Below, piece by piece: positions 3,968 to 56,573 of a DNA stretch of 64,000 nucleotides. A model generated the notes under the pieces. It was not told the origin of the DNA. It saw only the letters and a list, made by a program, of their open reading frames with translations, and made no database searches. This DNA comes from a virus (Duplodnaviria; Heunggongvirae; Uroviricota; Caudoviricetes). The stretch spans positions 48,338 to 112,337 of the IMG/VR virus record IMGVR_UViG_3300042484_000872; one strand, written 5' to 3'. Within the stretch, counting starts at the first letter, position 1. The number at the start of each line of letters is the position of its first letter. The translations under genes were made by a program, and so were the position numbers.

Positions 3968-5200
3968 TTATATTCGGGTTTCGAACTCTGCTATTTTACC
4001 TAGCTTACTGTCATAAACTAGAGCAAGAGCTGCACGTACTGAGTGTACGAAGTTATTATCTAAGTGCCATCTATCAGTTCCTGAAAGACTAGGCATTTGT
4101 TGTATTCTTACACCTTTGACTTCTTTAGCCATATAGTGATGTTTATCTCCTGTGTGTATCTCTCTGTATTTAGCATTACCAAAGAAATGACTATATTCAG
4201 GATGTGTAGCAAACAATAAAGGAAGATCATCTAATTTACAATTACCATGGTGCCATCCAATAAATGTATTACCTAACACTTTAGCTTTGATAACTGAATG
4301 TTCTCTGATAAAATCTACATCCATAGCATCTTGAAAATATACATCTAATGCATGTGCTAAGTAGAAAGATTTAGTTCTATCATGATTACCCTGTACAAGT
4401 ACAACAGTTACATCACTAGCATACTGTCTCAGCATATTGATTGTATCTACAAGAACAGAGAATCCTAATTCATACTCTGAATGGTAATCCATTATAGTAT
4501 CTTGTGGTGTACCCTGTGTAGTTTGATGTTGGTAGTTATCAGTATGGAAGAAATCATTTGATATAGGAAGTACAACAGTGTTTATGTTGTAATTAGCTTT
4601 CACTTTACAGATCAAAGATTGAGCCACATTGAAATATCTTAAGGCTCTTGCTTTTGGATCATTGTCACCATCTACACATCTTTTAGCTAAATGGAAATCA
4701 GATAAAGATATTTCTACGTCTACATAATCTTTATCAGTAGTACGATCTTCTTTAATGATTGATACATTAGTTGGTTTGTAGTTTTCTAAAAACTTAGCAA
4801 AGTCTTCAGGAGAATAATCTTGTGGTTGTTTTCTTTTACTAAAGACTGAGGAAGTAAAACTTCCACTTGGTAACATCTTAGACCAATAATTGGTAATGAC
4901 GTATTTATCTAGGTTTATCTTATGTAGCTTAGCTAACTCAAGATCATCTTTAGGTTCAAATGCACTAGTGACAGTACTTTCTATTGTTCCTTTCTCAACA
5001 TTCACTTTTCTAGATTCTTCCATGAATTTAGTAGCAATTCCTACAAGCACATCATCAACATCATCTTTTTCTCTCAGCTCTTTTAGAAGATCATTCACTT
5101 CAAATTCACTTATTCCTAGTTTTTCTGCGTAGAACTTTTTACTTTTCTTTTGCCTTAATAATTCTTCTAATCTATGTAACAAGCTTTGATTTTCAGACAT
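3968..5200 (-). CDS. calcineurin-like metallophosphoesterase
   Basis: VVLVQGNHD (GNHD motif), GWHHGN and HTGDKHH motifs typical of the metallophosphatase fold. Confidence 0.5.
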   Translation of the reverse strand: MSENQSLLHRLEELLRQKKSKKFYAEKLGISEFEVNDLLKELREKDDVDDVLVGIATKFMEESRKVNVEKGTIESTVTSAFEPKDDLELAKLHKINLDKYVITNYWSKMLPSGSFTSSVFSKRKQPQDYSPEDFAKFLENYKPTNVSIIKEDRTTDKDYVDVEISLSDFHLAKRCVDGDNDPKARALRYFNVAQSLICKVKANYNINTVVLPISNDFFHTDNYQHQTTQGTPQDTIMDYHSEYELGFSVLVDTINMLRQYASDVTVVLVQGNHDRTKSFYLAHALDVYFQDAMDVDFIREHSVIKAKVLGNTFIGWHHGNCKLDDLPLLFATHPEYSHFFGNAKYREIHTGDKHHYMAKEVKGVRIQQMPSLSGTDRWHLDNNFVHSVRAALALVYDSKLGKIAEFETRI

Positions 5201-5285
5201 ATGTATTCATATTAGTTAAAAAATATCGTAAAGATAAACAATAGTTTTTATATATTCCAAATAATTTTAGTTAGAGCTGTAATTC

Positions 5286-5308
5286 TTTATAACTAAATTA
5301 GTTATAAA
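5286..5308. promoter_or_regulatory. perfect 11-bp-arm palindrome TTTATAACTAA-a-TTAGTTATAAA upstream of the phosphoesterase gene
   Basis: Read directly: the two arms are exact reverse complements. Lies ~85-108 nt upstream of the minus-strand start at 5200. Confidence 0.35.
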
Positions 5309-5340
5309 ACAAAAACTCCCCAGACAAATGCCTAGGGAGA

Positions 5341-5372
5341 AACCTTAGAAAACCAACAAACTAAGGTTTTTT
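5341..5372. terminator. stem-loop AACCTTAG-N12-CTAAGGTT followed by TTTTTT (A-run on opposite strand)
   Basis: 8-bp perfect stem immediately after the stop of the 5371..5664 minus-strand gene; possibly bidirectional. Confidence 0.35.
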
Positions 5373-5664
5373 AAATTGGTTCAATTGCAGTAGTAGTGGT
5401 AGTTGTAGTTGGTACAACTGTAGTAGTAGTAGTAGTTGTTGTCACTTCATCTAAAACTATATCAATATAATTTGTGCATGTACCAGTAGAAAGAACTCTT
5501 ACTACTGTTGTGTAATCAGGTACAAGAGAGGATGCATATCCTGCTTCTAAAGAAGCTTTAGCTACTCCCACTTCAAATGCTGATGTAAATCCATCAATAT
5601 TTGAATATAAGTTGAAAGGGCCTGAATCAGCCCCAGCTGTTGTTAATGTTAATAATACTGTCAT
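5371..5664 (-). CDS. tail-fibre-cassette paralog: N-domain (GPFNLYSNIDGF) plus poly-Thr linker only
   Basis: N-terminal ~75 aa homologous to the N-terminus of 7085..7999 (GDAGPFNLYSNIDGF...TNYIDV). Ends after the T-rich linker. Confidence 0.5.
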   Translation of the reverse strand: MTVLLTLTTAGADSGPFNLYSNIDGFTSAFEVGVAKASLEAGYASSLVPDYTTVVRVLSTGTCTNYIDIVLDEVTTTTTTTTVVPTTTTTTTAIEPI

Positions 5665-5681
5665 ATATATTTTGGTTTAAA

Positions 5682-7061
5682 TTAATCTTGTATCAATCTT
5701 ACTGATAACCCAACTTTTTTGCTATCAATAGTTAGTAAAGCCAATTCACTATTATAAAAAAGAGAAACTTTATCTGGATTAAGTGGTAGCGTATCAATTG
5801 TTGAAGTCCAGAATCCTGTTTTTTCACGAATAGATTCAAAATCTCCTGTACCACCATTTCTTTGACCTGCACCAAATGCTGTAAAACCACTTGTATCTGA
5901 AGCTCCTGTATTTGGACTATCCCAATGAGCAAGACCAACTTGTTTCATTTTTCCTCCTGCTACAATATCTTCTGCTAATGTATTTATATAACAAGCAAAT
6001 TCAGTTTTTGAAGGAACATGATAACCTACTGGTGCAAATCCACGAGGATCATTAACAGCGTACCAGTTATATAGTTTTCCATAATCTTCATTAAAAGGAT
6101 CATTATCGTACCAACACCATGCACCTGTTGTAAGAGATGACCAAGTAGTTGGATCTGTTACTTGAGGAATTGGATCTCCATTTTGATAGTCTGTTCCACC
6201 ATAATTAATTTTAACAAAACTAGCAATTACATCACATACAGTTGTTGTGGTAGTGGTTGTTGGAGGAACAGTTGTGGTAGTTGTAGTGGTAGGACAAGCT
6301 GCATCAATACAATCAGCTCCTATTGATATAATTACTAATGGATTATCTGCAATAGCACAACATCCACAAACTTTAAGTACTTCAGATGAAGTAATTATAG
6401 TGTCAATAACTTCACCAACACAATTGTTATATGAAATATTATGATCTACTGCACTATTATCTGTATTAGTAAATGTAATACATTGACAAGGAATATATAT
6501 TGTTGTTGTTGTACTTGTTGTTGAACTAGATGTTGTTGTTGTAGTATTACATGGACCTGTTGGTGTAGCATTAACTACTCCAGGAACAATAAGTTCACTA
6601 GCTGTTTCAATACAAACTGCTGTAATTCCTGGCAATAATACTACTGGTGTAGAAAGACCTGTTACACAATCAGTAACTGATATAATAACTGTATCTAAAG
6701 ATAAGTTATCTAAATTATATCCTTGACAAGGATATGCAGTTGATGTACTAGTAGTAGTGGTAGTTGAATCAATACAACCCCACACTGTTTCACAATCTAC
6801 AGAGTTATTAACTATTGTTGTAAATTGATTATATAAGTTAACATTATTAAGTATATTATTAATAATAGTTTCTACCATTCCAGGTCCACATATAAAAGAA
6901 TCAATTTTTATAAATGCTTCAGTGACAGTATCACAATTTGAAATACCTGTACATCCTAATTCAGGACCTACATACACCACTTCATCAGAAGAAGTTTTAC
7001 ATCCACAAGGATTTGGATTTCCACATCCACAAGTGTTAACAATATTATTTGAACAAGACAT
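5682..7061 (-). CDS. tail fibre / receptor-binding-like protein, Cys-rich N-domain, Thr-rich linkers, C-terminal FISUMP (Fib_succ_major-like) domain
   Basis: C-terminus has YGKLYNWYA, GYHVPSKTEF, GGKMKQVGLAHW, SGFTAFGAGQRNG and GLSVRLIQD, matching the Fibrobacter-succinogenes-major-paralogous-domain pattern. Starts MSCSNN. Confidence 0.6.
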   Translation of the reverse strand: MSCSNNIVNTCGCGNPNPCGCKTSSDEVVYVGPELGCTGISNCDTVTEAFIKIDSFICGPGMVETIINNILNNVNLYNQFTTIVNNSVDCETVWGCIDSTTTTTSTSTAYPCQGYNLDNLSLDTVIISVTDCVTGLSTPVVLLPGITAVCIETASELIVPGVVNATPTGPCNTTTTTSSSTTSTTTTIYIPCQCITFTNTDNSAVDHNISYNNCVGEVIDTIITSSEVLKVCGCCAIADNPLVIISIGADCIDAACPTTTTTTTVPPTTTTTTTVCDVIASFVKINYGGTDYQNGDPIPQVTDPTTWSSLTTGAWCWYDNDPFNEDYGKLYNWYAVNDPRGFAPVGYHVPSKTEFACYINTLAEDIVAGGKMKQVGLAHWDSPNTGASDTSGFTAFGAGQRNGGTGDFESIREKTGFWTSTIDTLPLNPDKVSLFYNSELALLTIDSKKVGLSVRLIQD

Positions 7062-14091: not shown

Positions 14092-14125
14092 AATGTAGTT
14101 AAATTTAATAATTGGTTTTAATTTG

Positions 14126-14200
14126 TTGCGTGGGTTGGACTCGAACCAACGACCTCTAGGTTATGAGCCTAGCGAGCTAACCAACTGCTACTACCACACG
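14126..14200 (-). tRNA. tRNA-Met (CAT), initiator-like
   Basis: Reverse complement CGTGTGGTAGTAGCAGTTGGTTAGCTCGCTAGGCTCATAACCTAGAGGTCGTTGGTTCGAGTCCAACCCACGCAA. Anticodon loop CTCATAA, T-arm GTTGG-TTCGAGT-CCAAC, C1/A72 mismatch and A11:U24 as in bacterial tRNA-fMet. Strongly resembles E. coli tRNA-fMet by eye. Acceptor stem by hand alignment; D-stem pairing imperfect; no encoded CCA. Needs tRNAscan-SE/ARAGORN. Confidence 0.6.
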
Positions 14201-28736: not shown

Positions 28737-28764
28737 AGAGAGCTGTAATGGCTCTCTTTTATAT
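28737..28764 (+). terminator. intrinsic terminator AGAGAGC-tgtaatg-GCTCTCT + TTTTAT
   Basis: 7-bp stem read directly; the track's ATG at 28748 lies inside the loop. Confidence 0.5.
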
Positions 28765-28771
28765 CAAAGCT

Positions 28772-30088
28772 ATGAGTAAATATAGATTTAAGACAGAACA
28801 AGAGTTTAAATATGATGATTTTTGGAATGATGAATATGAATGCCCAGATAACTGGTCTGAAGAAGGTGATATGAATGGTTATATGGGACAAGATGTTCCT
28901 GATAAATTCATTAAACTAATTGAGAAAGGTCATTCATTTACTTATGATAATTGGTTATTCCGAGCAAACAATTGTATCATCAAAGAAATAGAAGTAGTAA
29001 ACGTAGAAGAAGTATTAGAACAAATTAAATTAAATAATTCCTTAATAACAAAAGAAAAAATGAAAGCAACAACAGTAAAGAAATCAGCAAAAGCAAATCC
29101 AGTAGCAGAGAAGTTCGTATTTATGGACAAAACAGTTAACATTCTAAACGTAGGATTCCAAACATGTAAGAATGTTGTATTATATGGTCCAGGAGGACAT
29201 GGTAAATCAGAAATGACACTTGATTTTCTAAAAGCAAAAGGTATTGAACCTTATGTTATTACAATGGGTACAGGTATGACTACAGACAGATTGTTTGGTG
29301 GTCTTGATATACCTATGTTTGAAAAGACAGGTAAAATAGAATATCTTGTAGAGAATTCATTTATGAATCATCCTTTTGTTATATTCGAAGAGATGTTTGA
29401 TGCTCCTGATTTCATCTTAGAACAATTAAAGGATATATTATCAAGTGGTACATTCAGAAATGGCACACAGATATTTCCTATTGAAACTAAGTTCATCATT
29501 TGTTGTACAAATAGAACTCGTGATGAATTCTCAAAGAATATGTCTTTGAAAGCATTGATGGAGAGATTTCCTCTTGAATTGAATGTTATCTGGGATAACT
29601 ATACAGAGATCAGCTACAATAAATTACTAGAGAGTAAGTTTGGTGTAGATAATGTAGATCCAGTGATTCCATATTTGTTACAAGAGTATGCTAAGAATGG
29701 TATTACAATTAGTCCACGTGTTGCTGTAACAGCATATCAAGTGTATGACCAATGTGGACCAGAATCATTAAGCTTTATTGCTGAGTTCTCTAAGAAACCA
29801 TCATTGATAGCTGAAGCTATTAAGAAGTTTGAGGCTACAATTAAGTTTAGAGATTTATCTGCATCTCTTACATTCAGTATTGAAACTCTAACTCATTTAC
29901 CATTGGTATCTAGAGATGATGAGAAGATGTACAAAGATGCTATTGTTGATCTTAACAAGCAATTGACAGACATCAAAGGATTAGCAGTGAGTGATGATAT
30001 TGCACAAATACATTCACAATTAGTAAAAGCTGCTACACAAGCTAAAGAGAAGTTTACTAAGAACCTACAAATTGCTTCATTCATATAA
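28772..30088 (+). CDS. MoxR-like AAA+ ATPase
   Basis: Walker A GPGGHGKS, Walker B-like VIFEEMFDA, sensor-1 CCTNRT. Start moved from 28748 (inside a hairpin loop) to the ATG at 28772 (MSKYRF...). Confidence 0.6.
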   Translation: MSKYRFKTEQEFKYDDFWNDEYECPDNWSEEGDMNGYMGQDVPDKFIKLIEKGHSFTYDNWLFRANNCIIKEIEVVNVEEVLEQIKLNNSLITKEKMKATTVKKSAKANPVAEKFVFMDKTVNILNVGFQTCKNVVLYGPGGHGKSEMTLDFLKAKGIEPYVITMGTGMTTDRLFGGLDIPMFEKTGKIEYLVENSFMNHPFVIFEEMFDAPDFILEQLKDILSSGTFRNGTQIFPIETKFIICCTNRTRDEFSKNMSLKALMERFPLELNVIWDNYTEISYNKLLESKFGVDNVDPVIPYLLQEYAKNGITISPRVAVTAYQVYDQCGPESLSFIAEFSKKPSLIAEAIKKFEATIKFRDLSASLTFSIETLTHLPLVSRDDEKMYKDAIVDLNKQLTDIKGLAVSDDIAQIHSQLVKAATQAKEKFTKNLQIASFI

Positions 30089-31479
30089 TGGCAAGTTTAT
30101 GGGATAATGGGTATGATGATTACTACGGTGATTATTATGCCCCTTCCTATACTCCTAAAAAGAGTAGTGGAGGCTGGAAAAGTAAATATGGTGGTAGTGG
30201 ATGGTCCAAGAGTTCTTGGTCTAATTTCTCATATGTTGTATCATATGAGGATAATGATGAAGATCTATTTGTTAAAGATCCAGTTAACTATTTAACACCA
30301 AGTGCTAAAGACATCAAAGCTAAGGTGAGAGGTGTTAAGAAGCAAGAATCTATTGATTTGATCAAAGAGTTAGCACGTGTGTGTTATTTCAAGATGATTG
30401 ATGAAACAGAATATGTAGCTGATAAGTATAAAGATGTAGATAATTTATCTGATGAAGACAAAGGAGAATATGCAAAGAAGAAACCTTTGCTTGATGCTGT
30501 GTATCAACAATATGTTCCAGGATTTACACCTCTTGAACAAGCTATTGCTATCTATCTGAAGCTTAAAGAATCTCCTACTGGAGAAAGAAATGAAGATGAT
30601 GATGATGAAGAAACAGATACAAGTAAAGCATTTGATTTTGATAGAAGTCTTTATTCTGATCCAAATATCAATGAACAATTAGATCTAAATGAACTAAGCA
30701 AGGATAAGAAGATGGAGATTATGAATCACATATCTCTTGTTGGTAAGTTTGGTAGTGAGTTTAAAGTGGAGAAAGAGATATCTGAGAAGATAGTGGCTAA
30801 TTCTGATCAATATGCAACAATGATTATGAGAGATTATGCTCAAATACATATGATGCCATTATATCAGAAGATGTTTCCTAATTTCAGAACTAAATTCTTA
30901 ACTAAAGACTTAACAGTGAATGTTCCTGTTGATAGAAAAGAACAGATTCAGAAGATTATTATTCTATTAGATTATTCTGGTAGTATGTCAGAAGAACAGA
31001 AACAAATTTGGGTAAATGCTATATTAATAGACAGATTCAAGTATGTTATGAGAGGTGAAGCTGAAGTGTTCTTTAGTTATTTTGTACATGATCCAGAGAA
31101 ATTAGACTTCCAACATATAAAGAATAGAGAAGATGTAATTGCATTTTGGCAAACATTCTCTAATAGTCCTAATGGTGGAGGAACAGAAGTTGGTGATATG
31201 GTTGAATATGTAGCTAATGAAATATCTAGTGGTAAATTATGTAATCTAGATGTTAATCTATTAGAAGAGAAGCCAGAGATATTAATTATCAATGATGGTC
31301 AGGATTCTATAAATAGTGAGAAGTTTCCTTATAAAGTGAATGCCATATCATTAATGCAATTTAGTGATGAGTTGAAAGATCTTTGTCTTGATACAGATGG
31401 TAAACAGATTAAGGTGACAGAAGACTTGGAAGTGTTCAGCTATGCTAAAGGTGTAGGTGAACAACAAATTAAATTATAA
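30088..31479 (+). CDS. von Willebrand factor A (VWA) domain protein
   Basis: MIDAS motif LLDYSGSMSEE; Gly/Tyr/Ser-rich N-terminus. Start codon overlaps the AAA+ gene's stop. Confidence 0.6.
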   Translation: MASLWDNGYDDYYGDYYAPSYTPKKSSGGWKSKYGGSGWSKSSWSNFSYVVSYEDNDEDLFVKDPVNYLTPSAKDIKAKVRGVKKQESIDLIKELARVCYFKMIDETEYVADKYKDVDNLSDEDKGEYAKKKPLLDAVYQQYVPGFTPLEQAIAIYLKLKESPTGERNEDDDDEETDTSKAFDFDRSLYSDPNINEQLDLNELSKDKKMEIMNHISLVGKFGSEFKVEKEISEKIVANSDQYATMIMRDYAQIHMMPLYQKMFPNFRTKFLTKDLTVNVPVDRKEQIQKIIILLDYSGSMSEEQKQIWVNAILIDRFKYVMRGEAEVFFSYFVHDPEKLDFQHIKNREDVIAFWQTFSNSPNGGGTEVGDMVEYVANEISSGKLCNLDVNLLEEKPEILIINDGQDSINSEKFPYKVNAISLMQFSDELKDLCLDTDGKQIKVTEDLEVFSYAKGVGEQQIKL

Positions 31480-31713
31480 TTTGATTAATTATTTGGTTTG
31501 TTACTCCCTGTAGATTATATTTGCAGGGATATTGTATAATCACTGGGGACTATAAACGCCACATAGCAGTTTAAATAGTCAATGTATGTGCTGCGTATCA
31601 TTGAACTTACCTATATTATGCATATTATGAGTTTAGAACTCACTAGAGTGATACAAAAAGAATAGGGAAGCTGAAAACTATATAGAGTAGGTACAAAATT
31701 AAACCAATGAACA

Positions 31714-31896
31714 ATGAAGTATCTAATAAGTATAGTCTTTACGTTCTTATCTGTATTAGCCTTTATGAAACTATTGTTTCTATTGAATAAGGGCAATACT
31801 GTTGCAAATGTTTTTGCTATAGTAGGTATATTCTTATTGGGATATATAATTGCAAGAACAAAGTTATTTACACAATTAAAATCAAAGAAAAAATGA
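31714..31896 (+). CDS. small membrane protein
   Basis: 60 aa, hydrophobic, overlaps the lipoprotein start by 4 nt. Confidence 0.3.
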   Translation: MKYLISIVFTFLSVLAFMKLLFLLNKGNTVANVFAIVGIFLLGYIIARTKLFTQLKSKKK

Positions 31897-32738
31897 AAAA
31901 AGTAGTATTATTAGGAGCATTAGTTGCTATGTTTGCAACATCATGTACAACAGCTGACTCAAGTGAAGTGGCATTAGTGGTAGATCAAATTGGAAATGAT
32001 AAGGGAATTCCAAACATTCAAATGGAATCAGGATTCATATTCTATTTCCCACCAACACAAGATGTATACACCTATCCAACATCTGTACAACATAAAGTGT
32101 GGAGTGCAGACAATCAAGAAGGATCAGAAACAGATGAGCACATTGATGTAACATCATCAGATGGAGCTACATTTGGTCTTGATGTATCTATAAACTTACA
32201 ATTACAAAGAGCTAAGGCATCAGAGTTGTTTATAAAATACAGAGTGGACATGGATGAGTTGATACATACAAGAGTAAGAACTATTGTTAGAAAAGAATTA
32301 TTAGATAATGCTGTTAACTTTGCATCAGATAGTCTTTTACAACATAGAAATATATATGAGGCCAATGTAACTAAGACATTAACATTATCATTAGAGAAAG
32401 AAGGATTCACATTGAATAACATTGCTGTATTAAAGATGGCATTACCATCATCATACAAGAAAGCTATTGAAAGAAAGATTGCTGTGTTACAAGAAACAGC
32501 AACTATCATCTCTCAGACTAAACAAGCTGAACAAACAGCATTGAAGAAAGTGGCATTAGCTAAGGGTAATTACGAAGCAGCACAATATGATGCTAAGACA
32601 AAAGAAATCTTATCACAACCTAAGCTTCTTGAATTATACAGAGCAGAAACAGAAAGAGTATGGGCAAATAAAGGCAGATCTCCATATGGTTCTAATAATG
32701 TATTTGGTTCTGCATCTGGAATTCTTTTAAATAGATAA
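31893..32738 (+). CDS. lipoprotein, SPFH/band-7-like
   Basis: Signal peptide with lipobox MKKVVLLGALVAMFATSC. The rest has prohibitin/HflC-like helical segments (weak, by eye). Confidence 0.5.
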   Translation: MKKVVLLGALVAMFATSCTTADSSEVALVVDQIGNDKGIPNIQMESGFIFYFPPTQDVYTYPTSVQHKVWSADNQEGSETDEHIDVTSSDGATFGLDVSINLQLQRAKASELFIKYRVDMDELIHTRVRTIVRKELLDNAVNFASDSLLQHRNIYEANVTKTLTLSLEKEGFTLNNIAVLKMALPSSYKKAIERKIAVLQETATIISQTKQAEQTALKKVALAKGNYEAAQYDAKTKEILSQPKLLELYRAETERVWANKGRSPYGSNNVFGSASGILLNR

Positions 32739-33534: not shown

Positions 33535-34169
33535 AATAATCTAAACCCTGACAGAAACTGTATAGTAATATATAGAATGGATATAGCTGTATGAGATATG
33601 CTATTATGTACCATTGGGAGTTCTCAGCAAGTAGTTAATCAGGTGTGAGTTCAGTAATCCTCCCAATTACACATCGAAAGGAGGTAATTAACTACGTGAC
33701 CCTACTCTTATATCTAACAATCGTAATTGATTTGCAGAAACAATAGTACATAAGAACAGACTATAAGAAAGAGGGTGCTAAACAATATTTAAAGCTCGAG
33801 GCTCAATCATTTGATTTGAGCACGCTACCTCGGACTATGATAAGTGTCCTCACATGAGGAATTTGGGCTCGACTGGAATTGACTGGTTATTATAGATTAT
33901 ACAATTCAGCCAGAGAGATAACTGTAAACTAAGGTGAATTATTTTAAATGGCAAAAACACAAGTCGTGTAGTGGCTCTAGGAGCAAACGCACAAATCGAA
34001 GCTAATATGAACAAAGTATTCTCATTATTAAATGAGGATGTAATCGTTGGTTTAGCAGCCTAAATTACCTCAAGATTTCTCTATTAGATTAAATAGAGTG
34101 GTGGGAACGTTAAGCCTAGCTTGACCCTAAATAAGCTGTATAAAATTGTATTTTTGAAGTAAGCAACAC

Positions 34170-34194
34170 GAGGGTTCGAATCCCTCCGAGTCCA
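34170..34194 (+). other. orphan tRNA 3' fragment (T-arm GAGGG-TTCGAAT-CCCTC + acceptor 3' strand CGAGTCC-A)
   Basis: Canonical T-arm read directly. No complementary 5' acceptor strand (GGACTCG) anywhere upstream. Confidence 0.35.
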
Positions 34195-34215
34195 CTGATT
34201 ACCAGTTAGTTAAAT

Positions 34216-34326
34216 GATTGAGTGGCGGAATTGGTAGACGTTATGTTATGTACAGATACTAAGCAGAAGTGAGATTGCTGTACTAAGCTCACATCCTGAA
34301 TACAGGTTCGAATCCTGTCTCAATCA
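34216..34326 (+). tRNA. tRNA-like gene, class-II-type D-arm, ~20 nt longer than a canonical tRNA; anticodon not assignable by eye
   Basis: 5' GATTGAG pairs perfectly with 3' CTCAATC. D-arm TGGCGGAATTGGTAGACG, T-arm ACAGG-TTCGAAT-CCTGT, discriminator A. The middle 60 nt contains a duplicated ACTAAGC and stems GTACAG/CTGTAC and GTGAG/CTCAC. Confidence 0.4.
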
Positions 34327-45340: not shown

Positions 45341-46153
45341 ATGTTATATCTTTGTCATATGAAAATAGATATAGCCCTTAGAAAAGTGACTGGTATATAT
45401 AAAATTACCAACACTATAAACAATAAATCATATGTAGGAAGTTCTGTTGATGTATATCAAAGAGGATGTATGTATAAGCACTTAATCAAAAGAAAGAAGT
45501 TACATAACAAACATTTACAGTCAGCTGTAGAGAAGTATGGATATGATAATTTTACATTTGAAGTCTTAGATAAGTGTGAAGAAGGTACATCTGTTTTTGA
45601 TTTGCATCAATTAGAACAATCTTACATAAACAAAATTAATCCTGAGTACAATAAAAGAACTGTTGTAGACACAAATCATTTACTTTCACATTCTCAAGAA
45701 ACTAAAGATAAAATATCTAATAGTTTGAAAGAATCTTTTAAGAATGGTAGTAAAGTTATCAATCGTATACAAGAACATAATATAAAAGTTAGTCTATTTG
45801 ATCTATCTGGAAATCATATTCAAGATTTTCCAGGATTAGCTCATTGTGCTGATTTTGTAGGAGTGAAGTATCAGAGCGTAACTTTTGCTATAAACAGTGA
45901 AAGAAGAAGAGTTAAGAATTACATAGTGCTACGTACAGAGGAATCTAATTTGGTAAAAGATTTTCTAAACATACCTAAATTAAATTATGCTAAAAAAGTT
46001 ACAGTTCTAGATATAATTACAAATGAGACATTACAATTTATTAATTGTAAACTGTGTGCAGAATTTATAAATTGTAAACCAACAACTGTAAAAAAATGTT
46101 ATGAGAATGGTAAAATTTGGAAAAACAAATACAAAATAATAAACTATGAGTAA
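45341..46153 (+). CDS. GIY-YIG homing endonuclease
   Basis: GIYKITNTINNKSYVGSS...R...KHLQSAVEKYG...FEVL...E. Alternative start at 45359. Inserted between the helicase fragment and the intact helicase gene. Confidence 0.65.
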   Translation: MLYLCHMKIDIALRKVTGIYKITNTINNKSYVGSSVDVYQRGCMYKHLIKRKKLHNKHLQSAVEKYGYDNFTFEVLDKCEEGTSVFDLHQLEQSYINKINPEYNKRTVVDTNHLLSHSQETKDKISNSLKESFKNGSKVINRIQEHNIKVSLFDLSGNHIQDFPGLAHCADFVGVKYQSVTFAINSERRRVKNYIVLRTEESNLVKDFLNIPKLNYAKKVTVLDIITNETLQFINCKLCAEFINCKPTTVKKCYENGKIWKNKYKIINYE

Positions 46154-48013: not shown

Positions 48014-48886
48014 ATGAGTAGTATCGGAGGAAAGAAAAGAGAGAACACAGGAAGTGGTGATTCAGTAAAGAAAGTAGGATTGTTCGAAGCAAACATTATT
48101 GCTATCAATCCAACAATTGAAGAGTATAAAGACAAGCTTGGTATTGATCTTAAAGAAGACAGCAAAGCTGCTGAGTATTTAGGTGAGACTAAAGATGGGA
48201 ACAGTTATGTTCGTTTAGATTTTTGGTTACAGAAAGTTAATACTACAGATAATTATAAAGTTAGCTTTTTCTTAGAAGATAAAGAACGTGAGAACAAAGA
48301 TGGAACTAAGAAACAATATATCAATTCTATTGGTATGTGTTCTTGGGCAGGAGATGAAAATGATCTAGCTGAATGGTTCACAAAAGGAAGAGATTTCAGA
48401 GTGGCGTATACAGGAGAAGAAGATCTTTACAACTTCATGAGAACATGGTTAGCTGATCTTGATTATCGTGATGCAGAAACTGTTCTACAATTAGAATGGA
48501 AGAAGTTGATGAGAGGTAATATAAAAGACATTAAAGACCAAATTGGTGGAGAATGGGCTAAATCTGTTATTGCTCTTGCTACTGTTATTGTTAAAGAAAG
48601 AGATGGAGATTCTAAAGAGTATCAAGGTATCTATAATAAAGCCTTCTTAGGTGGATATGCATTGAAACAATTTAGACTTGTTGATTATGGAGACAGAAGA
48701 GTACAAGAGGGTCTTAAAAACAAGAAACCAAAAGATTTGAAAGCACACGAGAAATTCGTAGTGAATGTTATAGGTGAATATGGTTGTAAAGACTATTATA
48801 CACTAAAGGACCTACAGGATTATAATGCAGATGACAATTTAGTTGCTTCTGATGCATATATTTCTGAAGATGGTGACGATTATTAA
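48014..48886 (+). CDS. hypothetical protein with acidic C-terminal tail (SSB-like?)
   Basis: Ends SEDGDDY, i.e. acidic tail with a terminal aromatic as in phage ssDNA-binding proteins; sits between ATPase and primase genes. Weak. Confidence 0.3.
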   Translation: MSSIGGKKRENTGSGDSVKKVGLFEANIIAINPTIEEYKDKLGIDLKEDSKAAEYLGETKDGNSYVRLDFWLQKVNTTDNYKVSFFLEDKERENKDGTKKQYINSIGMCSWAGDENDLAEWFTKGRDFRVAYTGEEDLYNFMRTWLADLDYRDAETVLQLEWKKLMRGNIKDIKDQIGGEWAKSVIALATVIVKERDGDSKEYQGIYNKAFLGGYALKQFRLVDYGDRRVQEGLKNKKPKDLKAHEKFVVNVIGEYGCKDYYTLKDLQDYNADDNLVASDAYISEDGDDY

Positions 48887-52218: not shown

Positions 52219-54516
52219 ATGATATTAGAAAAACAGAAAGAAGCAAATGTCCTAGAAGAAGGACAATCACAAGAATCAATTGGAATGTCCCTAGACTTAG
52301 ATTCTGCTCAGATATTGATGCAGATGTTAAGTAAGAATTTATATTCTGATGATATAGGCTCTGCTATCAGAGAATGTGCAAGTAATGCATTAGATAGCCA
52401 TAGAAGAGCTGGAGTGGACACTCCTATAATTGTTTCATTTAAAGCATCTGCAGCTAACAACTATGAGTTTTGTGTAGAAGATTTTGGTATAGGCTTAGAT
52501 GCTGATGATGTAAGAAACATTATTAGTAAATATGGTAAATCTACCAAGAGAAATTCTACAACAGAATTAGGTATGATGGGTCTTGGTTTCAAGGCTCCTC
52601 TAGCATATTCTAGTAGTTTCTATTTTGTATGTAGAAAAGATGGAATGGAACGCAAGTATATGATGTATGAAGGGGAAGATGCTAATACGATTGATCTTTT
52701 ATATGAAAAAGAAACAACAGAAGCTAATGGTGTAAAAATCATTATTCCTGTTAAGTATGCTGATAGATGGCAGTTTCACAAAAAGATTAAAGAACAACTA
52801 TGTTATTTCGAAAGTGTATACTTTGATGTACCAGAAGATTCTAAGATTACTAATGATTTTGTAATCTCTAGACATCCACACTTTCAATTCTCTGAAATGT
52901 CTACAGATCAAAACTTACACATCTGTTTAGACAATGTGTATTATCCTTTAGATTTTGAGAAGCTTGGTATTGGTAGAATTCAATTTCCTATAGGTCTTAG
53001 ATTTTCATTGAGTGATGGAATTTATCCTACACCAAATAGAGAATCTTTAAGATATACACAAGAGGCTAAGCAGATCATTATGGATAAACTTGGTCAAGTG
53101 GGAGATTATTTTGTTACTAAGTATAACGAAGCTATCACTGAGGGAAGTGACATTAAATCTATGGTGAATCACCTTGAGAAGAATGGACATTTTGTTGAAA
53201 TGGGTAATGGTACTAAATCTAAGATTGATGAGTTCATTAAATTCTCCACTGTAAAACCTATTGTTCCAGAATTAGAAGGAGTAGAACTATTGAACTTTCC
53301 TTCTTTGTACAAAACCTATAAGCAAAACATTCTTGTAGATCCATTTCCTGTTAGATATTCATTGAAATATAAAAGAATGTCTGATGCAGATAAAGGTTAT
53401 GTATGGGGATACAACTTAGAGAGTGTGTGTAATGGAGAATGTAATGTTTGGGTGTACACTGATAGAATTCCTCAAATCAAGAAAGATTTCCTAAGAGCTA
53501 CATGTAAAGAAACTCAAAGTAATTTTCTTGTTAAGAGAGGTACACCTATGAAATTAGGAATTCCTGCTAAGTTTGATCTTAAAACTTATTATCATTTATT
53601 GAAACTTGATAGATTTCCAAAAGAACAATGGAGAGATGCTATTAAAGAGTATCAACACATTATGTCTATGATTGAAGAAAACTTCACAGACCTTGATGAG
53701 TTAGAAGTTCCTCAAGATTTCATTGATAGCAAGAAGAAAGCAAAAATTAGTAAAGCTGGCTTAGCTAGTACTAAAAGACTGAAGCTGCAGGGAGAAATAG
53801 TTTGCAAGAAAGGTGTTGACTTGATGAGATGGAATGATGGAAGAAAGTGTAAATTTGATTCTCAAATCTATAAGTTAGAAGATCTTCATAAGGGTAAAGG
53901 ATTAAAGGTGTATACTCATCATGAGGACTTCTTGAAACTTGATCCTTTATATGGAATGATGGGAAAACAAAAGATGGAAGTGATTACATTCTCTAGTAGA
54001 GAACTAAAGATTGTAGAACAACTAAACATACACAATTTAATATCTTACGAGAAGTTTATGGAAGGTAAAACAGCACCATTCAAAAGAATGATTACATCAA
54101 TATTGATTCATGAGATGATAAGTACTTATAGAAGTACATTTGATCATGCAGATGCTTTGAAATATGTATCTACTGACTTATTTAATAAATTAGATAGATT
54201 AGCTACATACAGAAAAGACAATTATGTAGAAACAAATGATACATTAAGAAAAGCTATGTTAGAAGTGGCAACAGAACATAAATTGTTTGATCCACAAATC
54301 TATACAGAGTATTTAGAGATGTTAGACATATTTGAGAAGCTTACATTCTTGAATCCTGTATGTGCAAGATTAGGTTACACTCGTGAAGATGATCCAATGA
54401 TCCCAGTAATGACTGATTTGTTCAAATATTACAAGCATAGAGTAGATTTAAAGCACTATAATATCAAAATCAATGATGAAGTACTTACAGAAGAAACAAT
54501 AGATCAATTAACATAA
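52219..54516 (+). CDS. GHKL-family ATPase (Bergerat fold; Hsp90/MORC/MutL-like N-terminus), 765 aa
   Basis: N-box IRECASNALDS (ExxxNAxD), G1 VEDFGIGLD, G2 GMMGLGFKA. No TOPRIM motif seen downstream. Confidence 0.5.
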   Translation: MILEKQKEANVLEEGQSQESIGMSLDLDSAQILMQMLSKNLYSDDIGSAIRECASNALDSHRRAGVDTPIIVSFKASAANNYEFCVEDFGIGLDADDVRNIISKYGKSTKRNSTTELGMMGLGFKAPLAYSSSFYFVCRKDGMERKYMMYEGEDANTIDLLYEKETTEANGVKIIIPVKYADRWQFHKKIKEQLCYFESVYFDVPEDSKITNDFVISRHPHFQFSEMSTDQNLHICLDNVYYPLDFEKLGIGRIQFPIGLRFSLSDGIYPTPNRESLRYTQEAKQIIMDKLGQVGDYFVTKYNEAITEGSDIKSMVNHLEKNGHFVEMGNGTKSKIDEFIKFSTVKPIVPELEGVELLNFPSLYKTYKQNILVDPFPVRYSLKYKRMSDADKGYVWGYNLESVCNGECNVWVYTDRIPQIKKDFLRATCKETQSNFLVKRGTPMKLGIPAKFDLKTYYHLLKLDRFPKEQWRDAIKEYQHIMSMIEENFTDLDELEVPQDFIDSKKKAKISKAGLASTKRLKLQGEIVCKKGVDLMRWNDGRKCKFDSQIYKLEDLHKGKGLKVYTHHEDFLKLDPLYGMMGKQKMEVITFSSRELKIVEQLNIHNLISYEKFMEGKTAPFKRMITSILIHEMISTYRSTFDHADALKYVSTDLFNKLDRLATYRKDNYVETNDTLRKAMLEVATEHKLFDPQIYTEYLEMLDIFEKLTFLNPVCARLGYTREDDPMIPVMTDLFKYYKHRVDLKHYNIKINDEVLTEETIDQLT

Positions 54517-54521
54517 TTAAC

Positions 54522-54548
54522 AGGGGGACATTCGTGTCCCTCTCTTTA
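54522..54548 (+). terminator. stem-loop AGGGGGACA-ttcg-TGTCCCTCT followed by a T-rich tract
   Basis: Read directly, after the stop at 54516. Confidence 0.45.
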
Positions 54549-54574
54549 ACAATTAACAATTAAATTAAATCAAA

Positions 54575-56122
54575 ATGGAACACAAATTTTTAAGTCTTGA
54601 CTGGTTCAAGCAAACAGCAGAATCTGCAATTACTAAAGTGGTGGCTAACAAGTTAGAGAACTTGATGGAACAAGAAATTCCTGTAGAACAACAATGTCAT
54701 GCTAAACATGAGAAACCATATTTTGCTATTAAATTGGTAAATGACACACTTACAGTGGTGTTAACAGATGGAACTATTATCAGTAAGCCTGGTGCAACTG
54801 AGAATGATTATCATGCTGTTCAAGCAGCAAGAGATATATATGAAATACATGCTATTGTAAGTTCTCAAGAAGTGAAACAAGATGTAGCAGATATGAAAGC
54901 TGAAGCAGCAAGAATACAAGCTCTTCAACAAGGAGTAGAACTACTTGGAAAACTTCCTGATTTTGTTGTAAAAGGTAATTCAGTTTATCTTTCAGATACA
55001 ACTAGAAGTATGCCTCAATTGCTTGTGGAGAAATTCATTGAGATAGTTGATAGAGTGGGAGAAGAACCACAAACAGATGGTAGATCTTTTCATGAAGCTC
55101 TTAACGAGAATGATGATTATTTAGCTCATAAGAACTTCTTCATGTGGTGTTGTTTAAATCCAAGAGCTGAAGTGGCTAATGAACTATATAGATTCTTAAC
55201 AGAGAATAGTTTCAAAATCACTAAACAAGGATTCTTTGTAGCTCTTAGAAATGTTGTAACATTGCATGGATCTCCAGAACTGGTTCACTTCGTAAGTAAT
55301 GCTTACAACAAGGTGAAAGCTGTATGGAAGAAGAATCCAGATAACTACACTATTTTCTTAGAAAATGGAGAATACAAACTTGTACATGATGATAAGTTGT
55401 TTGAAGATATAATTGTTGAGTCTACAATATGTCCAGATTGTGTTGGTGAGGGTGGATACTATGAATCTTCAGAACACATGCATTATGATGATAATTGGTT
55501 TGATTGTGATACTTGTGGTGGATCAGGAGAAGTGGAAGAGTATGAATGGGAAGAAACAGTTCCTGTAGACCATGGTCAAAAGATTGGTGGATTAACAGCA
55601 TTGTATTTAGATCTTCCTAATAGAGAAGAGAATAGATTCACTGATAACTGGAGTAAAACATTTGATATCCGTATAGGACAAGTGGTAAGTATGCCTAAAG
55701 AAGAATGTAACTGGAGTACACAAGATTGTGCTACAGCAGGTCTTCACTTTGCTGGTTACACAGCTCCTTATGTTCTTTGTGGTGATACTACAGTTATGAC
55801 TCTTCATAATCCTATGAAGGTTGTAGGTATTGGTGCAGTGAAAGGTAGATGTTGGGAATATCTTCCATTCATGTTGACTACTGTTGCTGAAGCAGATCAA
55901 ATTATGAATGATAGAAGCTTTGACTTCTTACAATTAGATGAGCAATATGCTATCCGTGAATTAGAATCTCTTGCAGAGAAAGCTAAAGAAGGATTTGCAG
56001 CTGAGTCTAGAAAGTATGAATTCAACATGCCATCTATATCAGCTCATGAAATTAATGCTATTGTTGGTAGTCTTAGTGAAATGAAAGCCAAAATAACTAA
56101 TCGTGTGATTACGATTAATTAA
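54575..56122 (+). CDS. hypothetical protein with internal Cys cluster (CPDCVGEG...CDTCGGSG)
   Basis: 515-aa ORF immediately downstream of the GHKL ATPase. Confidence 0.55.
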   Translation: MEHKFLSLDWFKQTAESAITKVVANKLENLMEQEIPVEQQCHAKHEKPYFAIKLVNDTLTVVLTDGTIISKPGATENDYHAVQAARDIYEIHAIVSSQEVKQDVADMKAEAARIQALQQGVELLGKLPDFVVKGNSVYLSDTTRSMPQLLVEKFIEIVDRVGEEPQTDGRSFHEALNENDDYLAHKNFFMWCCLNPRAEVANELYRFLTENSFKITKQGFFVALRNVVTLHGSPELVHFVSNAYNKVKAVWKKNPDNYTIFLENGEYKLVHDDKLFEDIIVESTICPDCVGEGGYYESSEHMHYDDNWFDCDTCGGSGEVEEYEWEETVPVDHGQKIGGLTALYLDLPNREENRFTDNWSKTFDIRIGQVVSMPKEECNWSTQDCATAGLHFAGYTAPYVLCGDTTVMTLHNPMKVVGIGAVKGRCWEYLPFMLTTVAEADQIMNDRSFDFLQLDEQYAIRELESLAEKAKEGFAAESRKYEFNMPSISAHEINAIVGSLSEMKAKITNRVITIN

Positions 56123-56183
56123 TTTAATTATAGTTTTGTCCCAAATTTATTATATCTTTGGGACGAAACTTAATTATAAACAT

Positions 56184-56573
56184 ATGGCAAAGAGAGTGTT
56201 AGTCCCAAAGACAAGATGTGCAGGCACCATGAGTGAAGCTGCATTTTGGAGCTTCATAAGAAGTGCTTTGAGACAAAAGAGCAGATGGTGGAAACCTATA
56301 TCAGTATGTAAATTAAATGCACGTAGAGATTACAAAGGAACTAGTAAAAGACAAAAATACGAATACCAATGTAAGAAGTGCAAAACTTGGACTACTGAAA
56401 AGAATATTAATGTAGATCATATTATACCAGCAGGTTCATTGAATTGTGCACAAGACTTACCACTATTTGTGGAGAGACTATTCTGTGAACAAGATAACTT
56501 ACAGGTATTATGTACTACATGTCATGATAAGAAAACGCTTAAAGAGAAACAAGCTAAAAAGAAAACACTATGA
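56184..56573 (+). CDS. HNH endonuclease
   Basis: CKKCKTW...NVDHIIP...LQVLCTTCHDKKT. The track start at 56136 is a TTG inside a hairpin; the ATG at 56184 (MAKRVL...) is preferred. Confidence 0.6.
   Translation: MAKRVLVPKTRCAGTMSEAAFWSFIRSALRQKSRWWKPISVCKLNARRDYKGTSKRQKYEYQCKKCKTWTTEKNINVDHIIPAGSLNCAQDLPLFVERLFCEQDNLQVLCTTCHDKKTLKEKQAKKKTL

Follow-up and report, generated by a model that had tools for sequence, protein, structure and literature searches.

A probable rIIA-rIIB gene pair with a lineage-specific, putative zinc-knuckle insert in rIIB in an uncultured phage of about 112 kb

The DNA considered here is a stretch of 64,000 nucleotides, called the window throughout (positions 48,338 to 112,337 of IMG/VR record IMGVR_UViG_3300042484_000872), which forms part of a metagenomic contig of 112,245 bp from an uncultured phage (~112 kb). 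Two neighboring open reading frames (ORFs) on its plus strand encode proteins of 765 residues (protein 1) and 515 residues (protein 2). A first-pass annotation, made from the letters alone, had placed both ORFs exactly and had described them as an uncharacterised MORC/Hsp90-like module. The second part of that description does not hold, because the two genes are, almost certainly on the strength of their sequences, the rIIA-rIIB pair of the phage, a known locus that is annotated in thousands of phage genomes, among them those of crAss-like phages with a similar gene neighborhood. Since the G+C content of the window is only ~32%, open frames this long would not arise by chance. What the sequences show directly is the homology of the two proteins, their intact motifs, their conservation, and the gene order; the complex, the ATPase activity, and a counter-defence role in this host are inferred. 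The rIIA/rIIB family is known and the accepted view of the system is unchanged; the unusual feature is a putative zinc-knuckle insert in rIIB that is specific to one lineage.

The rII locus was among the first genes to be mapped at fine scale, and to our knowledge its mechanism is still not known after 70 years. With the present assignment, two large proteins and their metagenomic family move from unknown to rIIA/rIIB, and the locus is extended into abundant, uncultured ~110-kb phages related to the crAss-like and Cellulophaga phages. Each of the two proteins has >100 metagenomic homologue clusters at 68-94% identity, at least 120 clusters contain close relatives of each, and wherever the source names these homologues, the name is almost throughout "hypothetical protein." A search of phage records for near-identical DNA returned no match.

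Evidence for the rIIA-rIIB assignment

The similarity of protein 1 to rIIA is that of a full-length profile and goes beyond the ATPase domain alone. PHROG 612, "RIIA lysis inhibitor," matches it at 3.2e-58, with residues 1-682 lying on profile positions 1-629 of 725, and five more rIIA PHROGs as well as PHROG 609 also match. The T4 reference proteins, rIIA and rIIB (NP_049616, NP_049889), were used to check the names of these families. T4 rIIA scores 9e-250 against PHROG 612, while T4 rIIB scores 6.6e-111 against PHROG 609 and 1.5e-36 against PHROG 11221; thus, the family names trace to Benzer's genes. In a direct comparison by BLASTP, protein 1 and T4 rIIA align from residue 1 of both (1e-16, 26% identity), and the N-box, G1, and G2 motifs each pair up. 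The 26% is measured over 190 N-terminal residues; by sequence, the remaining two-thirds of rIIA can scarcely be aligned. The hhalign alignment (97.2% probability, 247 columns) continues past the ATPase domain to a P(T/A)PNRESL / APSREAL motif. Finally, tblastn with protein 1 finds 2,595 phage records, and the best 30 listed are mostly annotated as rIIA or rIIA-like.

The N-terminal region of protein 1 is a GHKL (Bergerat-fold) ATPase domain, as had been proposed in the first-pass annotation, and is followed by a second, transducer-like region and a long, family-specific C-terminal region. Pfam HATPase_c_3 matches residues 48-148 above its cut-off (1.4e-6), HATPase_c falls just below its own (1.5e-5), and comparison of a structural model with the PDB by Foldseek, discussed later, agrees. 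The N-box, G1, and G2 can be read directly in the sequence and are the motifs of T4 rIIA as well. Across 41 homologues (69-94% identity), there is no variation at N56, D88, G90, G92, G118, G121, or G123, and at least 90% of these proteins have E52. Within the N-box, Glu52 is the candidate catalytic residue and Asn56 the candidate Mg-binding residue. In these motifs, protein 1 retains every residue class that the Bergerat fold requires for binding and hydrolyzing a nucleotide. No transmembrane segments and no homopolymer "contingency" tracts were found in either rII gene. Indeed, although the DNA is 68% A+T, homopolymer runs of at least 6 are absent from both genes (52219-56122), whereas T4 rIIA carries an A6 tract that is reported to be a contingency locus (PMC12633550).

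Pfam and NCBIfam yield no family for protein 2. It is matched by PHROG 609 (4.3e-12) and PHROG 11221 (8.5e-5), both of which are named "RIIB lysis inhibitor." BLASTP aligns it collinearly, over both halves, with the rIIB of the crAss-like phage cr116_1 (Crassvirales; rIIA/rIIB, QOR59363/65/66): residues 55-227 pair with 7-155 (6e-9) and residues 351-503 with 160-310 (8e-14). The annotation of the cr116_1 protein reads "protector from prophage-induced early lysis," and its score against PHROG 609 is 5.6e-35. With T4 rIIB, BLASTP gives two segments that are collinear but weak (2e-4 and 3e-4). In a joint alignment that runs from the window clade through crAss-like rIIB to T4 rIIB, residues D357, T362, F363, G368, M373, G389, L390, H391, P413, K423, R425, and Y429 are invariant, and the core motifs NP...LF.FL...I...G and FD...G.VV.MP......GLH appear to be shared with T4.

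Protein 2 is considerably longer than either of these relatives. T4 rIIB has 312 residues and cr116_1 rIIB has 320, with no insert and no zinc finger; protein 2 has ~50 extra N-terminal residues relative to both, an N-terminal domain that differs from that of T4, and an insert of ~120 residues that contains a putative zinc knuckle. An exhaustive search returned 829 representative rIIB clusters at E <= 1e-3, and since the full-length ones are mostly 400-540 residues, a long rIIB is common. Most of these full-length proteins align with protein 2 in two stretches, at about residues 5-275 and 330-514 of the query, with a variable middle between them. Relatives of rIIA number more than 1,600.

As in T4, the two genes are adjacent and co-oriented and belong to the same PHROG families. 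They lie side by side in all 51 related loci with enough flanking sequence, as well as in T4 and cr116_1, and a natural fusion exists: the RIIA-RIIB protein of Escherichia phage RB43 (Q56C47, 1049 aa), whose rIIA part is a structural match to protein 1 (5e-21). PHROG 609 spans both proteins, with profile positions 30-305 matching protein 1 and positions 902-955 matching protein 2, although here the two are separate genes. That the rII genes are inseparable over large evolutionary distances and fused in some phages argues for a physical complex of their products. Table 1 lists the features of the locus.

Table 1. Features of the rII locus in the window (all positions are those of the window)
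Feature	Position	Strand	Remarks
rIIA homologue, 765 aa	52219..54516	+	N-terminal GHKL ATPase, second transducer-like region, long family-specific C-terminal region
GHKL (Bergerat-fold) ATP-binding domain	52351..52806	+	~aa 45-196
N-box ECASNALDS	52372..52398	+	aa 52-60; aligns with T4 rIIA RELITNMIDA
G1 box DFGIGL	52480..52497	+	aa 88-93; aligns with T4 DFGPGM
G2 box / ATP lid GMMGLGFKA	52570..52596	+	aa 118-126; aligns with T4 GGFGLGSKS
Stem-loop just 3' of the rIIA stop codon	54522..54543	+	9-bp stem, TTCG (UUCG) loop, RNAfold -13.6 kcal/mol
rIIB homologue, long form, 515 aa	54575..56122	+	PHROG 609 and PHROG 11221
Insertion of ~123 aa in rIIB	55256..55624	+	aa 228-350; T4 and cr116_1 rIIB gapped here; BLASTP segments flank the insertion
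Putative zinc-knuckle pair CPDCVGEG...CDTCGGSG	55430..55528	+	aa 286-318; DnaJ-type CxxCxGxG; read from the sequence
Conserved rIIB core	55625..56083	+	aa 351-503; GLH motif aa 389-391 = 55739-55747
Long stem-loop between rIIB and the HNH gene	56132..56170	+	inverted repeat; intergenic fold -20.7 kcal/mol
Small HNH endonuclease, 129 aa from ATG	56184..56573	+	Pfam HNH 1.2e-4, 22.6 bits against a cut-off of 21.4; PHROG 1985 5e-23

Proposed role of the pair

RexAB-type abortive infection pairs a sensor with a membrane effector. T4 rIIAB overcome RexAB and allow growth on RexAB hosts (PMC10312443), and T4 rIIA null mutants become RexAB-sensitive (PMC12633550). Of the two Rex proteins, RexB resides in the inner membrane, and its partner RexA binds DNA (PMC11077077). 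On hosts without Rex, T4 rII mutants replicate normally (PMC10312443, PMC11077077). RIIB alone is toxic and is sufficient to trigger a Lysobacter CARD/gasdermin system, and T6 rIIB mutants escape a Pedobacter system (PMC10312443). In PMC7824862, the GHKL domain of rIIA is described, rIIA is treated as a counter-defence protein that carries this domain, and T4 rIIB is suggested to act as a transcription factor.

By analogy with T4, the explanation of the whole locus that we consider likely is an rIIA-rIIB pair in which an ATPase and its partner protein would work in counter-defence. That they would do so in this particular phage we rate as somewhat better than an even chance. The first-pass annotation had offered DNA compaction, repair, and anti-defence as possible functions; the last fits the known biology of the family, while nothing found here supports the first two.

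In the mechanism that we envisage, rIIA and rIIB would be made early, alongside the replication genes, and would act as a complex. This complex would stop an abortive infection system of the RexAB type, encoded by the host or by a prophage, from killing the cell before progeny are made. Like other GHL ATPases, rIIA would use the binding and hydrolysis of ATP to power a cycle of clamping or remodelling, and rIIB would supply the target specificity. The hairpin between the two genes probably sets the ratio of rIIA to rIIB expression, and the second hairpin would close the unit before a separately promoted HNH gene.

Several points weigh against this explanation. In hhalign, protein 2 shows little direct similarity to T4 rIIB (E 2.5e-4, 43% probability), and thus the rIIB assignment leans on transitive links, namely the PHROG profiles and the crAss-like protein. 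T4 rIIB has a helix-turn-helix (HTH)-like N-terminal region (residues 5-81, PHROG 867 "DNA binding domain"), and no match to it was found in protein 2 or in the crAss-like rIIB, suggesting that protein 2 and T4 rIIB may differ in their exact action. The AlphaFold2 model of protein 2, built from a 42-sequence alignment, is poor (pLDDT 56), and when it was compared with the PDB by Foldseek, nothing fell below E = 1. The copy of the PDB that was searched holds no solved structure of rIIA or rIIB, and we know of no biochemical mechanism for the rII proteins even in T4. Finally, no RexAB-like system is known for the host.

Protein 1 in the GHKL superfamily and the putative zinc knuckle of protein 2

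For protein 1, AlphaFold2 gave a model (mean pLDDT 72.6) that contains the secondary-structure elements of the GHKL domain. Its ATP lid is of low confidence, as is usual for models of this fold. Among the viral models of BFVD, the best Foldseek match is an uncharacterised protein of Virus NIOZ-UU157 (2.6e-68), and full-length proteins annotated as RIIA, including those of KVP40 (5e-26), 44RR2.8t, and Streptomyces phage Bmoc, follow at 1e-20 to 1e-26 over ~800 columns. Against the PDB, members of the Hsp90 family (TRAP1, HtpG, Hsc82, GRP94) come out on top at 5e-10 to 1e-8, and the ATPase-plus-transducer modules of Topo II, GyrB, MutL, Topo VI-B, and MORC2 match at 1e-6 to 7e-6 over ~330-390 columns. 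The Foldseek probability is 1.00 for Hsp90, Topo II, MutL, Topo VI-B, and MORC2. At the level of sequence, the PDB matches are MORC2 (phmmer 0.005) and Topo VI-B. The best NCBIfam match is "HSP90 family protein" (NF010683; 1.7e-7), and sacsin and Topo VI-B are matched as well; all of these sequence-level scores are well short of the family cut-offs. Thus, the nearest non-phage relatives of protein 1 are Hsp90, MORC, sacsin, Topo VI-B, and MutL, and the first-pass reading of it as most like Hsp90, MORC, and MutL rather than GyrB was sound.

Protein 1 is nevertheless not a member of the Hsp90, MORC, MutL, or topoisomerase families; within the GHKL superfamily its place is on the rIIA branch, which the literature already covers (PMC7824862). 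With MORC, MutL, Topo VI-B, and GyrB it shares the Bergerat fold with its N-box, G1, and G2, but it has no TOPRIM, no CW/S5-specific signature, no MutL C-terminal domain, and no Topo VI-A partner. A topoisomerase of the GyrB or Topo VI-B kind was considered and rejected: as the first-pass annotation had said, Pfam finds no TOPRIM in protein 1, a scan of window ORFs that covered the 13 larger ones on the plus strand and the neighbors of the locus found no topoisomerase partner, and the Topo VI-B equivalogs, at 18-28 bits, miss their cut-offs of 274-1310 widely. MORC was likewise rejected, since its matches are weak and local to the ATPase domain (0.005 by sequence, 7e-6 by structure) and Pfam detects no further MORC domains. 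Hsp90 shares with protein 1 an N-terminal GHKL domain followed by a middle domain, but neither its C-terminal dimerisation domain nor its MEEVD motif was identified in protein 1. Membership in that family is rejected by the NCBIfam score (30 bits against a cut-off of 455) and by the low structural agreement (TM-scores of 0.25-0.32, root-mean-square deviations of 15-23 Å).

The insert in protein 2 carries the Cys cluster that had been noticed in the first reading. Residues C286, C289, G291, G293, C311, C314, and G318 are invariant in 42 homologues, with the length of the spacer between the motifs varying. The cluster sits in the variable middle of rIIB and has a narrow distribution. Among 102 full-length rIIB representatives, only the two closest carry it. 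Among 41 related viral loci, two CxxC motifs occur in all 33 that have at least 61% identity (32 of them with perfect CxxCxGxG pairs) and in none of the 8 at 57% identity or less, though gene order there is unchanged. Pfam DnaJ_CXXCXGXG (PF00684) matches protein 2 at 3.5e-4 (21.2 bits, below the cut-off of 32.7), and the best PDB match of a profile of the clade is the zinc-finger region of DNAJA2 (0.005). Like the central cysteine-rich domain of DnaJ, the insert has two CxxCxGxG motifs that lie on β-hairpins. However, protein 2 would have one zinc center where DnaJ has two, and it has neither a J-domain nor the C-terminal client-binding domains. We read these patterns as one putative DnaJ-type zinc knuckle that was gained in a single lineage. 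The knuckle is probably functional within that lineage, and since it is specific to the clade, it would be dispensable for the core function of rIIB.

The resemblance of one protein to Hsp90 and of the other to DnaJ raises the idea of a chaperone-like machine, in which an Hsp90-like rIIA and an rIIB with a DnaJ-type zinc finger would bind and remodel a client, for example a replication factor of the phage or a protein of the host's membrane or defences, and would neither act on DNA nor mask a trigger. Full-length Hsp90, TRAP1, and HtpG are indeed the best structural matches of the rIIA model in the PDB, an Hsp90 family heads the NCBIfam matches of protein 1, and the DnaJ CxxCxGxG domain and DNAJA2 are the best Pfam and PDB matches of the insert. 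Nevertheless, we consider such a machine unlikely. The Hsp90 scores given above are far from those of the family, the DnaJ match lies under the Pfam cut-off and lacks the second zinc center and the J-domain, and the zinc finger is missing from sister phages with the same locus and from the rIIB of T4 and of the crAss-like phages, so it is not central to the function of the family. A narrower version, in which the rII pair has turned chaperone-like only within this clade, is likewise unlikely. Here, rIIA would be an Hsp90-like ATP clamp, and the zinc knuckle of rIIB would grip a host protein, such as the effector or sensor of an abortive infection system in a Bacteroidota-type host. If this were so, the action of the rII proteins would be easier to study in these phages, which would in addition indicate what naturally triggers the CARD/gasdermin-type systems that sense RIIB, one of which comes from Pedobacter (PMC10312443).

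The locus and its surroundings

In this window the rIIA-rIIB pair lies within a plus-strand replication and recombination module that encodes a DNA polymerase, DnaB-like and SNF2-like helicases, a Sak4-like protein, a primase, a uracil-DNA glycosylase (UDG), an exonuclease, and RecA. Wherever the flanks of the 51 related viral contigs reach far enough, the order UDG…rIIA-rIIB-HNH is kept, even at an rIIB identity as low as 45%, which answers the gene-neighborhood check proposed with the first-pass annotation. The surroundings of the pair in cr116_1 are similar, with a primase, rIIA, rIIB, UDG, HNH, and a PD-(D/E)XK exonuclease, and the large terminase of that phage is distantly related to the one in the window. 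The UDG gene is upstream of the rII pair here and downstream of it in cr116_1. A literature search on rII genes in crAss-like phages was unproductive.

The HNH gene that the first-pass annotation had seen beside the pair is supported by both Pfam and PHROG 1985. It follows rIIB in every related locus with enough flank. Its homologues, however, occur in 602 phage records in unrelated contexts, and because the whole region is syntenic, the adjacency carries no specific meaning. The HNH gene is thus a conserved neighbor, and nothing ties it to the rII module. In T4, the gene after rIIB encodes DenB, which shows no similarity to the HNH protein.

The neighborhood bears on two further explanations. 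In the first, the pair would act on DNA: an ATP-operated clamp like MORC, MutL, or Topo VI-B would compact, repair, or organise the phage DNA as it replicates; rIIB would be the subunit that binds DNA or regulates, and the HNH protein a possible third component. The setting among the genes for primase, UDG, the Sak4-like protein, the exonuclease, and RecA would suit such a role, as would the constant presence of the HNH gene within the clade, the sequence-level matches to MORC2 and Topo VI-B, and the HTH-like domain of T4 rIIB, a proposed transcription factor (PMC7824862). Yet neither protein has a detectable DNA-binding, TOPRIM, Spo11/Topo VI-A, or MutL C-terminal endonuclease domain. Protein 2, besides being without the HTH-like region of T4, is strongly acidic (82 D+E against 48 K+R). 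Relatives of the HNH protein are found in hundreds of phages away from rII genes, within a region here that is syntenic throughout, and the normal replication of T4 rII mutants in hosts without Rex (PMC10312443, PMC11077077) does not fit a role in handling phage DNA. We therefore regard a DNA-acting pair as very unlikely.

In the second, the phage itself would carry a system of defence or superinfection exclusion against its competitors, composed of a GHKL ATPase sensor, an effector, and the HNH nuclease. Pairs of an ATPase and a nuclease are common in defence, and an HNH gene does lie next door. This is nonetheless highly improbable, and it was rejected because no PADLOC model gave more than a marginal match in the scan (TmtA at 0.005; ZorE at 0.0014, over 18 residues). 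Moreover, both proteins have full-length homologues in rIIA and rIIB, which are themselves counter-defence genes, and the locus is part of the syntenic core of a lytic-type replication module rather than of a variable island.

Several relatives carry insertions within the rII genes. In six of them (L011, at 1015-2007, and L021, L022, L031, L033, and L051), an element of ~1 kb lies exactly between rIIA residues 121 and 122, in the G2 box (GMMG/LGF). The cr116_1 rIIA gene is split at about the same place by an endonuclease-bearing element, whereas the rIIA gene of the window is intact. In three others (L041, at 5174-6336, L050, and L059), elements of ~1.1 kb interrupt rIIB at about residue 391, right after GLH. 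The rIIA inserts examined are mostly not multiples of 3, the two upstream exons inspected run into a stop within a few codons, and within the inserts are LAGLIDADG ORFs of the double-motif kind, free-standing and 253 and 285 residues long. By these features, the inserts resemble introns that carry homing endonucleases more than they resemble inteins. An Rfam scan of the ~1 kb inserts found no group I or group II intron model above threshold. The homing elements fall precisely on the G2 box and on GLH, which singles these out as the most constrained sites. Taken with the residues that are invariant from T4 to the clade (the N-box, G1, and G2 of rIIA; GLH and about ten others in rIIB) and with the dispensable insert, such sites provide comparative constraints for the rII mechanism.

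Each gene of the pair is followed by a hairpin. The first-pass annotation had recorded the one between the two genes, which occupies part of a 58-nt spacer. Most relatives have a hairpin at the same position with a different stem sequence, several of them with a T-run after it; it is missing in ~11 relatives whose spacers are 27 nt or less. RNAalifold finds compensatory changes in 5 of its 9 pairs. The post-rIIB hairpin is present in every relative whose rIIB-HNH spacer is short enough to be folded, with compensatory changes in 10 of 11 pairs. Both are real, conserved structures, consistent with attenuation or termination. That part of the earlier description stands; the label of terminator is an interpretation, since neither window copy has a canonical U-tract, and for the same reason the co-transcription of the pair is presumed.

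On the 3' arm of the post-rIIB hairpin, ~24 nt before the HNH start codon, a TAnnTTTG sequence (56153-56160) is invariant in 20 relatives while the remainder of the stem covaries. It resembles the Bacteroidota -7 promoter element, a resemblance that is a lead only. Tested as a genome-wide -7 box, TAnnTTTG shows no enrichment, the window having 93 copies where 90 are expected, so the idea of a promoter within the hairpin stays unproven. A TAACAATTAA motif upstream of rIIB was also tried as a phage promoter and rejected: the window contains just 5 copies, and there is no enrichment of the longer version.

The spacers of the locus vary among relatives. Many have one or two small ORFs between rIIA and rIIB, one encoding a Cys-rich peptide with an acidic EEEE tail and another beginning with MKNKKEELIKAIETYL. 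The relatives concerned are L021, L022, and L054 (243-nt spacer), L024 and L031 (>350 nt), and L025, L026, L033, L049, L053, and L056, and in some relatives the gap between rIIB and the HNH gene is ~550 nt longer. These extra ORFs suggest that the rII locus is a hotspot for small-gene insertion in the clade.

By its sequence, the phage as a whole appears to be distantly related to the crAss-like and Cellulophaga phages. The nearest cultured relatives of its large terminase are Leptolyngbya phage Lbo-JY46 (40%), Cellulophaga phage phi4:1 (31%), and crAss-like phages (26-31%). The genes for the portal, the large terminase, and the major head protein are on the minus strand of the window, and a tRNA-Met (CAT) gene lies amid these structural genes (14125-14200, minus strand), adjoining that of the major head protein.

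The start of the plus-strand arm holds cargo that is unusual for a phage: a MoxR-type AAA+ ATPase (28748-30088, plus strand; bpMoxR 1.1e-12, AAA_5), followed by a 463-residue ORF with no family assigned (30088-31479, plus strand), and, nearby, an SPFH/Band 7 protein (31893-32738, plus strand; 4.3e-18). A match to the DUF805b RNA motif (31661-31693) falls between the last two. Further along, the window encodes a tmRNA (33865-34197, plus strand; Rfam RF00023, 49.9 bits against a gathering score of 47), for which ARAGORN gives the tag peptide ANAQIEANMNKVFSLLNEDVIVGLAA*. Directly after it lies a tRNA-like Rfam match of 111 nt (34216-34326, plus strand) that ARAGORN did not call and that may, for this reason, contain an intron or a long arm. 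A homing-endonuclease-like ORF with GIY-YIG and NUMOD1 domains (45341-46153, plus strand) lies between the genes for the DnaB-like and SNF2-like helicases.

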